Below, piece by piece: positions 1 through 13,104 of a DNA stretch of 13,104 bases; position 1 is the stretch's first letter, and every line of letters begins with the position of its first letter. Source of the DNA: a virus. Taxonomy: Duplodnaviria > Heunggongvirae > Uroviricota > Caudoviricetes. The stretch spans positions 1-13,104 of the IMG/VR virus record IMGVR_UViG_645058835_000001. One strand, given 5' to 3'. A program made the position numbers and the translations under genes. The notes below the pieces were generated by a model. The model searched no databases, was not told the DNA's origin, and saw only the letters and a list, made by a program, of their open reading frames with translations.

Positions 1-1230
1 ATGTTTAACAAAATGGATGTAACCAAACTGAACCTCCCGAAGGTTGATATAGAAGAAATGCTTCGAAGGATAAATTCAGGAAAAGCCATTTTATTTACCG
101 GGGCAGGTTTTTCACGTAAAACAAAAAATATAACAAATGGTGAACCACCTCTTGCAAAAGCGCTATCTAAGAAAATAAGTCAGCTCGCAGGGTTAGGTTC
201 TGATAATGAAGATTTAATGTTCACTTCTCGTTTCTTTCTGAAGCACGGAAATAAAAGCGAACTTCTTAAACTATTAAAAGATAATTTTGTGTTGCGTGAA
301 GTTTCTGAATATCATGAGAAAATTTGTTCCTTACCATGGCGAAGGTTTTACACTACAAATTATGATAATTCTATTGAATTGGCATGTCTCAAAACCGGAA
401 GGAGAGTTGAGTCATTGGATATTGATGACCTTCCAAAGGATCATATTTCTCAAGGTGATTTATGTGTACATCTTAATGGCGCTATTGATAAAGCGATAAT
501 ATCCGACCTCGATTCTAAAATAAAGCTTACAAACTCATCTTATCTTTCCCCTCAATCTTTCATTAGCTCCCAATGGAATTACGTTTTTAAAAGAGATCTT
601 GAAACAGCAAGTGCTGTAATATTTGTAGGATACTCCATGTATGATATGGATGTACAAAGATTGCTCTACCAGACAGATAGTCTGGTAGAAAAGACATATT
701 TTATAGTTCATGAAAATGCTAGTTTCCAGGAAACATTTTTTTTGACTGACTTCGGACACGTTTTACCTATTGGAGTAGAAGGCTTTTCTAATTTAATCAA
801 TGATATTCAATTTCAATCCAATGAAAATCGAGAAGAAATATGTCTAGATTGTTTTGAATTAAAAGAAATTAGTTACAATCATGAAACAATTACAGATACT
901 GAAATAAAAGATTTTTTACTCTTTGGAAAGCATGATGATAATCAGATTAACACTTCTGTAAGCAATGATTTTTTAGATAATTTTTTGATAAATCGCGATC
1001 TACTTAAAGAAACTATAAGGTTAATTCAATCCAAAAATAATATTCTTATTCATAGTGAGTTAGGAAATGGTAAAACCGTTTTTCTTAAAATGATAACTTA
1101 TCTGCTCGCTCGTGAAGGATATAATGTTTATACCTTCTCTGAAAAAAGTGAATATGATGATGAATTATCCGAAATTGATTGGATCGTAAAAAAACAAAAA
1201 AAATGTAGTAATTGTGATCGAAGGTTATAA
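1..1230 (+). CDS. SIR2-like (SIR2_2-type) domain protein, N-terminal part of a SIR2-P-loop NTPase; the reading frame terminates inside the NTPase domain
   Basis: 409-aa ORF starting at ATG at position 1 (true start could lie upstream of the window). Motifs in the usual SIR2 order: AILFTGAGFS, RFYTTNYDNSIE, CVHLNGAID, VIFVGYSMYDMD. A beta-strand plus Walker A-like P-loop (ILIHSELGNGKTVFLKMITYLLAREG) sits only ~55 aa before the stop, so the NTPase domain cannot be complete in this ORF. Confidence 0.75.
   Translation: MFNKMDVTKLNLPKVDIEEMLRRINSGKAILFTGAGFSRKTKNITNGEPPLAKALSKKISQLAGLGSDNEDLMFTSRFFLKHGNKSELLKLLKDNFVLREVSEYHEKICSLPWRRFYTTNYDNSIELACLKTGRRVESLDIDDLPKDHISQGDLCVHLNGAIDKAIISDLDSKIKLTNSSYLSPQSFISSQWNYVFKRDLETASAVIFVGYSMYDMDVQRLLYQTDSLVEKTYFIVHENASFQETFFLTDFGHVLPIGVEGFSNLINDIQFQSNENREEICLDCFELKEISYNHETITDTEIKDFLLFGKHDDNQINTSVSNDFLDNFLINRDLLKETIRLIQSKNNILIHSELGNGKTVFLKMITYLLAREGYNVYTFSEKSEYDDELSEIDWIVKKQKKCSNCDRRL
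1188..1203 (+). repeat. Homopolymeric A7-C-A8 tract at the junction of the two SIR2-NTPase reading frames (candidate slippage or frameshift site)
   Basis: Read directly: cgt aaaaaaa c aaaaaaaa tgt. Frame 1 stops at 1228-1230; frame 2 is open from 1190. Removing one A joins them with no stop codon. Confidence 0.9.
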
Positions 1231-2482
1231 TAAAGCAGAACGATTGCTAAATCATATTAATATCAATTATCCTGATGAAATATCGATAATAATTACTGAT
1301 AGAAGTGCAATTGCTTTAAGAACAGCTTACTTCATCAATTCATTAGATATTGAGTTTTCTGAAGTTAGTTTAGATCAGTTAACCGAATCTGAAATTTCTG
1401 ATTTTGTTGATTTGATAGAAAATCAAGGTCTGTGGTCAGAACTTACATCATTGTCAAAGATTAACAAAATCAAAAAAGTTAAAGAAGATTACAATGGCCA
1501 AATCTCAGGGATATTATTAGGTTTACTTAAAAGCCCTTCAATTCAAGAAAGAATCAAATATTTAACAGATGAGTTGTTTAAATCTCAAGAGTATAAAGAT
1601 ACTGTGTTTGCCATAGCATTATGTGACATAATTGATGTAAGAAAAACATCTTCTATTATTTCTGAAATGGCAGGGAATGATAGTATTTATAAAATGAGTC
1701 TTAGATCAAGTGATCAGTTCAAATCTTTATATCGGTTCACAGAAAGCGGTACTGCAATTGAGACAAAATCAAGTCTAATGTCTCTTACGATCATAAATAA
1801 TAGTTTTAATGTGAGCTATGTTAGACATAAACTACTATCAATAGTCGAGACATTTAACAATCTTAAAAATGTATCGTATGATGCAAATAAAATATTTAAA
1901 TCTTTACTAAGGTTTCATGTTTTAGAAGTTTTGCTACCGCAAAAGCAAAAAGCATTGGATAGCTATTACATGGAATTGAAGCGGGTTTGCCCGTGGCTTA
2001 CTGACTCCCCACACTATTGGGTACAATATGCTATGTGTAGACTTTCAATAGGAGATTTAGACTCTGCTCAAACCTATTTAAATGATGCATACTCTTTAGC
2101 TAGATCAAAAGAAGATTATCATACGGAAAATATTGATACGCAGCAGGCTAGATTGCTAATAATGAAGTGTTTAAAAGAACCTGACTCTGGTAAGTGCTTT
2201 GATAGTTTCATCGAAGCTCATAACATACTTATTGGATTGCCTGATGATGGTTATAAGTATAGACAAATAATTCCGTATAAAGATGTCTATGAGCTAAAGT
2301 ATAAACACTTTAATAAAGGTAATAAAGTTCAATTTGAACATGCTTGCAAGGCTCTTTTAGCTCAAGTAAGTTCCGTTGATTACCACCAAGATGATCTTAC
2401 TTTAATTAAAAGAGTATCATTTATAAATAGAAGCAAGGTTATTTTAGAGGAAATAGTAAAAAGTATAACATCCAATAGATGA
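1214..2482 (+). CDS. Continuation of the same SIR2-NTPase protein (rest of the NTPase domain plus an alpha-helical, TPR-like C-terminal region); probably not an independent gene
   Basis: 422-aa ORF in the +1 frame relative to 1..1230, overlapping it by 17 nt. It begins at GTG with no Shine-Dalgarno and has no in-frame ATG for ~140 codons. Its frame opens at 1190, inside the A7-C-A8 tract. Helical repeat-like sequence near the C-terminus (YWVQYAMCRLSIGDLDSAQTYLNDAYSLA). Confidence 0.6.
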   Translation: MIEGYNKAERLLNHININYPDEISIIITDRSAIALRTAYFINSLDIEFSEVSLDQLTESEISDFVDLIENQGLWSELTSLSKINKIKKVKEDYNGQISGILLGLLKSPSIQERIKYLTDELFKSQEYKDTVFAIALCDIIDVRKTSSIISEMAGNDSIYKMSLRSSDQFKSLYRFTESGTAIETKSSLMSLTIINNSFNVSYVRHKLLSIVETFNNLKNVSYDANKIFKSLLRFHVLEVLLPQKQKALDSYYMELKRVCPWLTDSPHYWVQYAMCRLSIGDLDSAQTYLNDAYSLARSKEDYHTENIDTQQARLLIMKCLKEPDSGKCFDSFIEAHNILIGLPDDGYKYRQIIPYKDVYELKYKHFNKGNKVQFEHACKALLAQVSSVDYHQDDLTLIKRVSFINRSKVILEEIVKSITSNR

Positions 2483-2489
2483 TTTTTAT

Positions 2490-11614: not shown

Positions 11615-11946
11615 AAAATAAGCCCGCAACAATTAAAATGCTGACACCCACTACTACTATATGATTAGTTTTTATACATACAGTATGTTCAAGAGTGAAA
11701 AGCCGCCTCTCGTTATCAAAATTTTAACATCCTGCGTGTTTTGTACAAGCAAGAACAGTCACTATCTTTCAAATATTCTAAAAAATCACCTTTACACCAT
11801 CTAAGACGATAAGAAAATGTGTGAAGTCTATCATCCAAGTCTCAATCGATCGATACTTGCGTTAGTTGATGAGAAAAAACTCTGGCACACAAGGCTTTGC
11901 AATGGCTTGCAAGGTTTTGTTTCTATCAGATAGTGGTTAAGGTGGA

Positions 11947-13104
11947 TCACTCCACCTTTTCATCAAGCCAGTCCGCCCACCACTGCATCATTTCTCTGCG
12001 CTTATCGAGATACTGAGCATGGTTGTAAATCCCGCGCACAGATCCGCCGTTGGCATGTGCCAGTTGCACTTCAATAGCGTCAGCAGGCCATTCGTGCTCG
12101 TTCATAATTGTGCTGAATTCATGCCTGAATCCGTGACCGCTTTCCAGACCCTCATAGCCGATTTGTTTGATCACAAGTAGCACCGCGTTCTCGCAAATTG
12201 GCTTCTTCTTATCGTTGCGCCCGGCAAAAACAAACTCTGATACTGGTTTAGTGATTGAGCTTAGTGTAGTGAGAAGTTCAACTACCTGGTCTGACATAGG
12301 AACCACATGAATTTTGCGTCCCTTCATCACACTGGCGTCGATGGTGATAATCCTGTTTTCAAAATCGACGTTCTTCCATTGCATGGAACGAAGCTCTTTC
12401 GTTCTTAGGGCTGTGTAGCGTAAAACTTTGGTCGCAATGAGCGATACGATGCTTCCTGAAAATGTTGCAAGTGCTTTGTTGAATGCAGGGATCTGGTCTG
12501 CAGGAAGAAACGGGAAGTTCTTCTTGCGGTATCCCTTCATGGCGTCAGCAAGGTCAGGTGCCGGGTTATATTTAGCCCTACCAGTGACAATAGCGTAACG
12601 GAAAACCTCGCCGCATCTTCTGCGTGCTTTGTTGGCTCGCTCCATTGCACCGCGATCTTCAAATCTGCGGATTACTTCAAGAAGTTGCATCGGCTCAATA
12701 TCCTGAATTTCAAGGCCGCCGATGATGGGTAAAATGTCGTCATCAAACATTTTTGCAAGTTCAGTCGCATAGCCTACTGACCAGACTTGCTTCTTGTGCT
12801 CGTACCATTCCTTGTAAATGGCGCTAAAGGAATTGTTGTTAGACGAAGCCTTTTTCGCTTTTACCGGATCGATGCCAACCGAGATGTCTTTCCTCGCGGT
12901 CCATGCTTTATCCCTTGCCTCCTGCAAAGTCATAAGCGGATATTTTCCGACGGTCAGGATTTTCTCCTTACCGTCAATCTTGTAGCGAAGCTGCCATACC
13001 TTTTTCCCTGACACAGGGACATAAAGGTACAGGCCATTACCATCGAGAAGGCGGTATGGTTTTTCTTTCGGCTTTGCTGCTTCAATCTGCTTAACGGTGA
13101 GCAT
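11947..13104 (-). CDS. int: Tyrosine site-specific integrase, P4/IntS-type
   Basis: 385 aa. The N-terminal arm domain (MLTVKQIEAAKPKEKPYRLLDGNGLYLYVPVSGKKVWQLRYKIDGKEKILTVGKYP) is typical of P4-family integrases; the catalytic region carries HGFRHEFST and VRGIYNHAQY (His-x-x-Arg, Tyr). The ATG sits at the window edge. Confidence 0.9.
   Translation of the reverse strand: MLTVKQIEAAKPKEKPYRLLDGNGLYLYVPVSGKKVWQLRYKIDGKEKILTVGKYPLMTLQEARDKAWTARKDISVGIDPVKAKKASSNNNSFSAIYKEWYEHKKQVWSVGYATELAKMFDDDILPIIGGLEIQDIEPMQLLEVIRRFEDRGAMERANKARRRCGEVFRYAIVTGRAKYNPAPDLADAMKGYRKKNFPFLPADQIPAFNKALATFSGSIVSLIATKVLRYTALRTKELRSMQWKNVDFENRIITIDASVMKGRKIHVVPMSDQVVELLTTLSSITKPVSEFVFAGRNDKKKPICENAVLLVIKQIGYEGLESGHGFRHEFSTIMNEHEWPADAIEVQLAHANGGSVRGIYNHAQYLDKRREMMQWWADWLDEKVE

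Follow-up and report, generated by a model that had tools for sequence, protein, structure and literature searches.

The stretch of DNA analysed here (called the window below; 13,104 nt, positions 1 to 13,104 of the IMG/VR virus record IMGVR_UViG_645058835_000001) carries a putative SIR2-type defence gene, a rolling-circle Rep gene, a series of P22-like phage genes and the integrase gene intS, and is part of a composite element inserted in Escherichia coli at argW (tRNA-Arg), between yfdC and the csc genes. The whole window is contained as an exact substring in GG657384.1 (assembly GCA_000158395.1) and shares 99.96% identity with the complete E. coli 357900 chromosome, from which it differs by four substitutions (at 3793, 7872, 10790, and 11086); the sole indel relative to that strain and four clone-mates is an extra A in a poly-A run at ~1188-1194. 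On the intS side, outside the window, argW lies 162 bp from the intS start codon and is followed by yfdC and mlaA, and on the other flank, to the left of window position 1, a 58-aa open reading frame (ORF) and a serine resolvase gene are followed by the csc sucrose genes and a truncated dsdX. A 23-bp perfect direct repeat of the argW 3' end (TGGTGTCCCCTGCAGGAATCGAA) is found at argW (att core at 31265-31287 of the strain 357900 record, L001) and again 1.7 kb to the left of position 1; no virion or packaging genes remain between the repeats, and host genes lie outside the repeat pair. Because the two att copies are located at argW and 1.7 kb beyond the window, the inserted unit measures ~15 kb and is larger than the window itself. 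The csc sucrose-utilisation genes past the distal att repeat (L001 10486-15820), which adjoin the truncated dsdX, form a further acquired block at the argW hotspot. No tRNA gene was detected within the window by ARAGORN, argW being just outside. The window ORFs were scanned with Pfam, PHROGs, NCBIfam, and PADLOC, and the features of the window are as follows.

1-2482, plus strand: SIR2-STAND putative defence gene, split into ORFs 1-1230 and 1214-2482 (Pfam SIR2_2, weak STAND signal)
2483-3188: non-coding region of 706 bp between the convergent SIR2 and Rep genes
2487-2517: terminator-like hairpin directly after the SIR2 stop codon, a perfect 12-nt inverted repeat (100% complementary) with a 7-nt loop
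2673-3188: conserved non-coding backbone segment with iteron-like repeats (GTTGACG copies plus further direct and inverted repeats)
3189-4241, minus strand: rolling-circle (HUH) Rep, 350 aa (Pfam PF23343 REP_ORF2-G2P, 29.8 bits against a cut-off of 27.8)
4269-4655, minus strand: truncated hkaH/Ead-like gene with read-through into the island, encoding a 128-aa junction protein (Pfam Ead_Ea22, 28.6 bits)
4652-4816, minus strand: DUF2737 gene, intact (Pfam)
4813-5094, minus strand: DUF5405 gene, intact (Pfam)
5114-5407, minus strand: Abc2 anti-RecBCD gene, intact (Pfam)
5431-5814, minus strand: gene for a single-stranded DNA-binding protein (SSB)-like product, intact (phrog_44 SSB, E 2.9e-27)
5814-6016, minus strand: 3' fragment of the erf recombinase gene, a pseudogene (RefSeq "ERF family protein, incomplete")
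6016-6789, plus strand: internal fragment of phage gene P (DnaB-like helicase; 98.3% identity to HK620 P; Pfam DnaB_C, E 1.1e-27)
6788-7000, plus strand: last 213 nt of gene 16 (DNA-transfer protein), in frame with the P fragment
7089-7349, minus strand: Mnt/Arc-family repressor gene (Pfam Arc, E 1e-14, and Repressor_Mnt, E 3.3e-14; a RefSeq coding sequence)
7481-7990, minus strand: free-standing HNH homing endonuclease gene (Pfam HNH_3, E 1.8e-19; phrog_99 HNH, E 1e-58)
8078-10210, plus strand: HK620-type tailspike gene (gene 9), intact, 710 aa (Pfam Head_binding, Phage_spike_2, HK620_9_C)
10388-11614, minus strand: hkcF, Wzy-like oligosaccharide repeat-unit polymerase (99% amino acid identity to HK620 HkcF; TIGR04370, 116 bits against a cut-off of 40)
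11947-13104, minus strand: intS, the prophage's own integrase (Pfam Arm-DNA-bind_3, Phage_int_M, Phage_integrase; 96.9% DNA identity to HK620 int)

A first-pass annotation, made from the sequence without database searches, had listed the gene classes in this order, and all of them were recovered by ORF listing and Pfam scans. Two kinds of homology meet among them: judged by their matches, positions 1-4319 are the distal half of a separate ~9.5-kb argW island, and positions 4313-13104 a remnant of a P22-like prophage of the HK620/Sf6 type. The boundary between the two parts and two breaks inside the phage part are deletion junctions (J1, J2, and J3), which were located at single-base resolution, the overlaps being 7 nt, 1 nt, and 2 nt, respectively; each of them interrupts a gene. 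J1 (4313-4319) is a 7-nt microhomology, CAGGTAT, at which homology to the island of strain 600468 (L004) stops and homology to phage Louie (L007) starts. The 128-aa junction ORF matches HK620 hkaH over 4443-4655 and phage Louie CDS0026 over 4313-4476; the 3' end of the hkaH/Ead-like gene has been lost and the reading frame continues into island DNA. In comparison with the tandem array of GPEC1292 (described below), ~6.8 kb is missing at J1, comprising the tyrosine integrase, a 251-aa gene, AlpA, the helix-turn-helix (HTH) genes and a 128-aa gene of the island, the middle att, torI, and the ea genes. The formation of J1 by homologous recombination between the island and phage 128-aa genes was considered and rejected: the two proteins are unrelated and the microhomology is limited to 7 nt, so J1 arose by illegitimate recombination. 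The Rep gene, the small ORFs, and the SSB gene, at first grouped as one replication module, cannot be kept together, as J1 parts the island Rep from the phage small ORFs, Abc2, and SSB.

At J2 (6016), homology to erf (L002) ends and homology to the interior of HK620 P (11111-11884) begins at the same base; the loss relative to HK620 is ~5-6 kb, containing kil, cIII, N, cI, cro, cII, and O. At J3 (6788/6789), the P fragment is joined to the end of gene 16, homology to PK8568 gene 16 starting at 6788, and ~21 kb is missing in comparison with HK620 (nin, Q, the lysis, terminase, portal, scaffold, and coat genes, gp4/10/26/14/7/20, and most of gene 16). The ORF at 5993-7000 (335 aa), which has the erf 3' fragment in antisense orientation at its 5' end and is matched in Pfam by both DnaB_C and Phage_P22_gp16, is an accidental in-frame chimera of the P fragment and the C-terminal 70 aa of gp16. 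The DnaB fragment noted earlier at this position is present as a DnaB_C domain, and the ORF that carries it is not a helicase remnant throughout, its end being that of gene 16.

In the HK620 annotation, the attP core is located between int and torI (hkaC), and int separates it from hkcF and gene 9. With attP upstream of int, the order after integration is argW/attL, intS, hkcF, gene 9, mnt, late genes, early genes, torI, attR. Window positions 8070-13104 are collinear with that HK620 end, with two segments at 92.6% and 96.9% DNA identity, and exact copies of the HK620 int-side arm repeats were found adjoining argW in strain 357900 (L001 31103-31149). The window integrase is an argW-integrated IntS with attP upstream of int, with arm repeats and core both exact, and IntS, HkcF, the tailspike, and Mnt constitute the normal attL-proximal end of such a prophage. 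IntS had at first been read as a marker of a P4-like island; it is the native integrase of HK620/Sf6-type P22-like phages, and the P4-family domain Arm-DNA-bind_3 is present in IntS, in the island integrase, and also in phage HK620, and is thus not diagnostic of a P4-like satellite. The P22-like nature proposed for the Mnt-tailspike-conversion block was confirmed by the collinearity, by the near identity of HkcF, and by the tailspike, which shares 89% amino acid identity with HK620 gp9 in a gap-free alignment of 710/710 residues. The tailspike has a P22-type head-binding domain (Pfam Head_binding, E 8.6e-63), the conversion gene adjoins int, and HkcF is a candidate O-antigen conversion gene. 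The HNH_3/AP2-type gene at 7481-7990 is inserted between mnt and the tailspike gene, where P22 has arc/ant; no HNH gene is present at that position in HK620 or in the GPEC1292 remnant. Of the virion and lysis functions, neither Pfam nor BLAST found any trace in the window of the terminase, portal, coat, gp4/10/26, gp7/20, or lysis genes, only the tail of gene 16 being left; cI, cro, N, O, and Q are likewise absent from the window, and P is reduced to its internal 774-nt fragment.

Between J1 and J2, the small ORFs, Abc2, and the SSB-like gene belong to the early-left operon of a P22-like/lambdoid phage. HK620 hkaH-hkaI-abc2 is matched by window positions 4443-4817 and 5100-5450 at 92-94% DNA identity, the early-left operon of the P22-like remnant in GPEC1292 is 97.9% identical to positions 4542-6016, and positions 4443-6789 find ~96% matches in many lambdoid/P22-like phages (HK633, IME10, Sf6, and HK022). 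NCBIfam contains no model for the SSB-like protein.

In the island half, the block 1-4319 recurs in other E. coli genomes at 99.6-99.95% identity. Its cargo had been described as a SIR2-NTPase: the SIR2 part was confirmed as an N-terminal SIR2 effector domain (Pfam SIR2_2, 43.3 bits against a cut-off of 24.5), and the NTPase signal (nSTAND_NTPase5, 25 bits) remains under its cut-off of 34. The PADLOC match is confined to the ThsA SIR2 domain (E 2e-12), and no full-length PADLOC or NCBIfam model matched the protein. The gene is a single 826-aa ORF in sister genomes (intact in L008-L010 and L012) and is divided into 409 and 422 aa in the window, which has A7 at ~1188-1194 where strain 357900 and its four clone-mates have A6; the same 409+422 split is found in L011. 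As the window comes from an old draft assembly, the frameshift may be a homopolymer sequencing error and not a real inactivation.

The non-coding region downstream, initially called structured, contains the hairpin and the inverted repeats; it does not belong to a known RNA family, as Rfam at gathering thresholds gave no match in the whole window. GTTGACG occurs at 2782, 2793, 2887, and 3004 (span 2782-3010), on either side of an AT-rich stretch that lies downstream of the Rep gene; these are all four copies in the 13-kb window, for the whole of which 1.08 would be expected. The segment 2673-3188 is a putative Rep-dependent origin. It is conserved at 94% in an island variant with ParA cargo (L013) and at 75-77% in an island of Klebsiella pneumoniae (L016, segment 12877-13147), a syntenic locus in which the cargo is placed between Rep and the non-coding segment and not after the segment. 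In an alignment of five Rep sequences (50-52% identity), the three rolling-circle motifs are conserved, namely motif 1 (FLTLT-like) as FTFRP/FLTLKP, the HUH motif as PHVHAII, and the catalytic YxxK as IDYMAK, and H130, H132, and Y191 are invariant. A tblastn search of Rep against 50,697 phage records returned no match, its identity to ORFs of small Klebsiella plasmids is 24-29%, and among 5.8 billion proteins its clusters number no more than a handful. No PDB sequence matched Rep, and NCBIfam has no model for it; an AlphaFold model built from the five-sequence alignment had a mean pLDDT (predicted local distance difference test score) of 40.3 and was unusable for fold assignment. RefSeq gives the strain 357900 Rep as 285 aa, from a downstream start codon (L001 21188-22045); the 350-aa frame is open in the window and is annotated at full length in strains 600468 and PRO_A-1407.

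Complete islands and tandem arrays were found in relatives. Strain 600468 has a stand-alone 9.5-kb island at argW (L004 12261-21829) with its own integrase and flanked by the 23-bp repeats; the gene order of the intact island is tyrosine integrase (428 aa), 251-aa ORF, AlpA, 63-aa ORF, HTH_17 protein, 128-aa ORF, Rep, non-coding region, SIR2 gene (826 aa), 58-aa ORF, serine resolvase, and 23-bp att repeat. The island integrase is 32% identical to IntS. GPEC1292 has the island next to a P22-like remnant in a tandem array, with an HK620-type middle att (TGGTGTCCCCTGCAG joined to ACATCTAC) located between torI and the island integrase. The right arm of PK8568 is 99.98% identical to window positions 6788-13104 and is accompanied by torI, by the middle att, and by an N-terminal piece of the island integrase, 100% identical and joined to cscK; in PK8568, the same tandem array has decayed through another deletion, which extends from the island integrase into cscK. 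In relatives, the two parts of the window are thus seen as separate adjacent elements with their own att sites, an arrangement that the first-pass annotation had named as evidence against a single element. The hotspot region stacks several kinds of elements: in PRO_A-1407 (L003 22311-32318), the tandem partner of the island is a P4-like satellite (Psu, Ogr/Delta, TOPRIM-DUF927 primase, and Icd-like).

The cargo slot between Rep and the resolvase is variable and contains a SIR2-STAND gene, a ParA/CbiA-like ATPase gene, or an HNH_2 set, the first gene of which matches the PADLOC candidate PDC-M68A (E 8.6e-34). The backbone of the family, which occurs in Klebsiella as well, consists of int, a 246-251-aa ORF, AlpA, three small ORFs, Rep, a small ORF, and the resolvase (compared across L004 12261-21829, L013 10001-13738, and L016 6659-14433). 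In other E. coli lineages we found different chimeric ORFs, a phage Rad52-like gene fused to Rep in an island with ParA-like cargo (L013 10001-10768) and a Rep fragment fused to a tyrosine integrase. These independent fusions of island and P22 remnant indicate that the deletional welding of argW arrays recurs. Literature searches yielded no description of the island family or of the fused element.

With regard to mobility, the composite retains intS and a complete attL. No homology to torI was found in the window or elsewhere in the ~15-kb composite, the HK620 xis-side arm repeat is absent from the composite with up to 4 mismatches allowed, and the island integrase and AlpA, both kept in intact relatives, are missing. 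The IntS/TorI module is common to KplE1 (CPS-53), HK620, Sf6, and CUS-3, which have the same 16-nt core, and TorI is needed for excision (PMC2951348). On the KplE1 model, excision of the composite would not be expected, because TorI and the IntS attR arm are gone, and the composite would be fixed in the chromosome and inherited vertically. The fused form was found in six assemblies with at most 6 single-nucleotide polymorphisms over 19 kb, both flanks included, which indicates clonal, vertical inheritance. Of 5426 complete E. coli genomes, 543 (~10%) carry the Rep-plus-origin segment and 16 carry this tailspike; the full arrangement, and indeed Rep and this tailspike together, occur in a single genome, that of this strain. 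Tailspike copies at least 99% identical to the present one are found in four genomes, including this strain and PK8568, and PK8568 is without Rep.

From these data, the window is very probably a composite relic of two independent argW-integrating elements, a prophage and an island, welded together by three deletions in the course of ordinary prophage decay. An HK620/Sf6-type prophage and the ~9.5-kb island would both have used argW as attB and come to lie side by side in tandem; the phage is nearer to the tRNA gene and was probably the second to integrate. Three illegitimate deletions at microhomologies of 1-7 nt would have followed the tandem integration: one from P to gene 16, removing ~21 kb of the late region; one from erf to P, removing ~5-6 kb of the immunity/replication region; and one across the boundary between the elements, removing ~6.8 kb from the island integrase through the 128-aa gene, the middle att, torI, and the ea genes. 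The outcome would be the present ~15 kb between two 23-bp argW repeats, with IntS and attL kept and with the recombination directionality factor (RDF), the IntS-type attR arm, the island integrase, the repressor, and the virion and packaging genes lost. One of the two options offered in the first-pass annotation, a decayed P22-like prophage plus a separate island, is therefore correct in substance and needs two amendments: the island did not invade the prophage, as the two stood in tandem at argW and their boundary was deleted later, and IntS and the SSB/small ORFs belong to the prophage and not to a satellite-type module. Anti-phage defence by the SIR2-STAND protein, in those members of the lineage with an intact gene, and alteration of the O-antigen by HkcF may plausibly persist, and the tailspike would be silent or available for recombination.

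Several observations weigh against simple decay. In the assembly collection, 82 index blocks contain the junction protein; the fused arrangement is not a one-off, has thus persisted, and could be under selection as a unit. The ORFs outside the junction fragments are intact, the 710-aa tailspike among them; the composite still lies between perfect 23-bp direct repeats and keeps IntS, and rare excision with an RDF given in trans by another prophage is conceivable. None of the genomes searched had the direct ancestor itself, in which a complete island would stand in tandem with exactly this right arm; the ancestor is deduced from GPEC1292 and PK8568.

A rival reading is a functional chimeric hitch-hiker: a satellite-like element, with Rep and defence cargo, would have acquired IntS, a tailspike, and an O-antigen polymerase and would use them to set its host range whenever a P22-like helper packages it. 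In favour of this reading, the att repeats bound the unit, intS, the tailspike, hkcF, mnt, Rep, and the putative origin are all kept intact, the unit is found in many assemblies, and P22-like phages are known helpers of E. coli phage-inducible chromosomal islands (PICIs) (PMC11773190). We nevertheless consider it very unlikely, as we do the satellite with its own tailspike and conversion gene that had been proposed as the more speculative option: pseudogene debris (erf, P, and gene 16 fragments and the truncated hkaH) is found at every module boundary, the junctions cut genes, and there is no RDF, IntS attR arm, island integrase, AlpA, pac/terminase, or capsid-redirecting gene. Furthermore, the copies are all clonal with identical flanks, Rep and this tailspike are together nowhere else in the 5426 genomes, and the same island occurs alone or beside a P4-like satellite. 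There is next to no chance that the window belongs to a complete or inducible P22-like prophage with Rep, SSB, and DnaB as an unusual early region, even though the central region has P22-like genes on both sides and recombination genes (Abc2, SSB, and erf-type) are represented, because the flanking sequence refutes it: the att repeats are only ~15 kb apart and host genes follow immediately beyond them, the terminase, portal, coat, and lysis genes are missing, as are Q, cI, cro, N, and O, and Rep has no homologue in the 50,697 phage records. The age of the draft source and the possible sequencing error in the SIR2 homopolymer could suggest an assembly artefact, i.e. a chimeric contig of unrelated regions; this too is refuted, the same junctions being present in the complete strain 357900 genome and in at least four other independent assemblies (NCBI, Logan), and it retains hardly any probability.

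The composite relic at argW serves mostly as a caution: its gene order suggests a satellite with a tailspike, yet two insertions in tandem at a tRNA hotspot and subsequent deletions account for it, which is how prophages are normally domesticated. The relic is also a base-resolved example of the decay of an argW array, in which the int/conversion/tailspike block and the distal defence cargo survive and the lethal and mobile functions are lost. The part worth following is the island family, with its rolling-circle Rep, iteron-like region, and variable defence-like cargo slot. No primase or packaging gene was found in the intact island by Pfam and PHROGs, and with no helper dependence detected either, the label "satellite" is unjustified by the tests made. 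We think it rather improbable, though worth stating, that the island half represents an uncharacterised family of small argW hitch-hikers that replicate by the rolling-circle mechanism after excision and are mobilised by co-resident phages, among them the argW P22-like phages next to which the islands are often found, the fused form being a dead-end by-product.

Among known systems, the island resembles the integrase-only defence islands (Hochhauser et al. 2023, PMC10121019) and the P4-like/PICI hotspots in having a P4-type tyrosine integrase, AlpA, a replication gene, and a variable slot. Unlike P4 and the PICIs, it has a rolling-circle HUH Rep in place of the P4 alpha or the PICI primase-helicase, and unlike those hotspots, it carries a serine resolvase at its distal end. 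Pfam and PHROGs detected none of the P4 markers (alpha primase-helicase, Psu, Sid, Delta/Ogr, and epsilon) and no capsid- or packaging-redirection gene in the window or the intact island. When compared with the PICI layout, the intact island relatives have int and AlpA and no primase or packaging gene; the window has lost the island int and AlpA. The argW P22-like phage Kapi1 mobilises a PICI, EcCIMP1, which was considered as a possible counterpart of this island and rejected, since EcCIMP1 is located at tRNA-Thr, has a primase, and measures 20 kb.

The phage part is similar to HK620 (Lederbergvirus) in the order int, hkcF, gene 9, and its hkaH-hkaI-abc2 and P segments are 92-98% identical to those of that phage. 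It differs from HK620 in that only ~8.8 of ~38 kb is left, that an HNH gene and an intact mnt are found upstream of gene 9, and that erf and a short SSB are present instead of the Sak4-like recombination module of HK620. The conversion genes of KplE1 are gtrABS, whereas the composite has a Wzy-like polymerase, as does HK620. The closest parallels with KplE1/CPS-53 of E. coli K-12 are in the state of the locus: both are defective Sf6/HK620-type remnants at argW with the same core (CTGCAGGGGACACCAT) and with intS beside the tRNA gene, and in both, O-antigen-modification and tail genes have been kept and the repressor is gone (PMC2951348). Unlike KplE1, which has TorI and a functional attR and still excises, the composite has lost torI and the attR arm, and its distal end comes from another element. 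The locus is thus a new example of a kind already known, in which a cryptic prophage resembling KplE1 forms part of a tandem array that has decayed at a tRNA hotspot.

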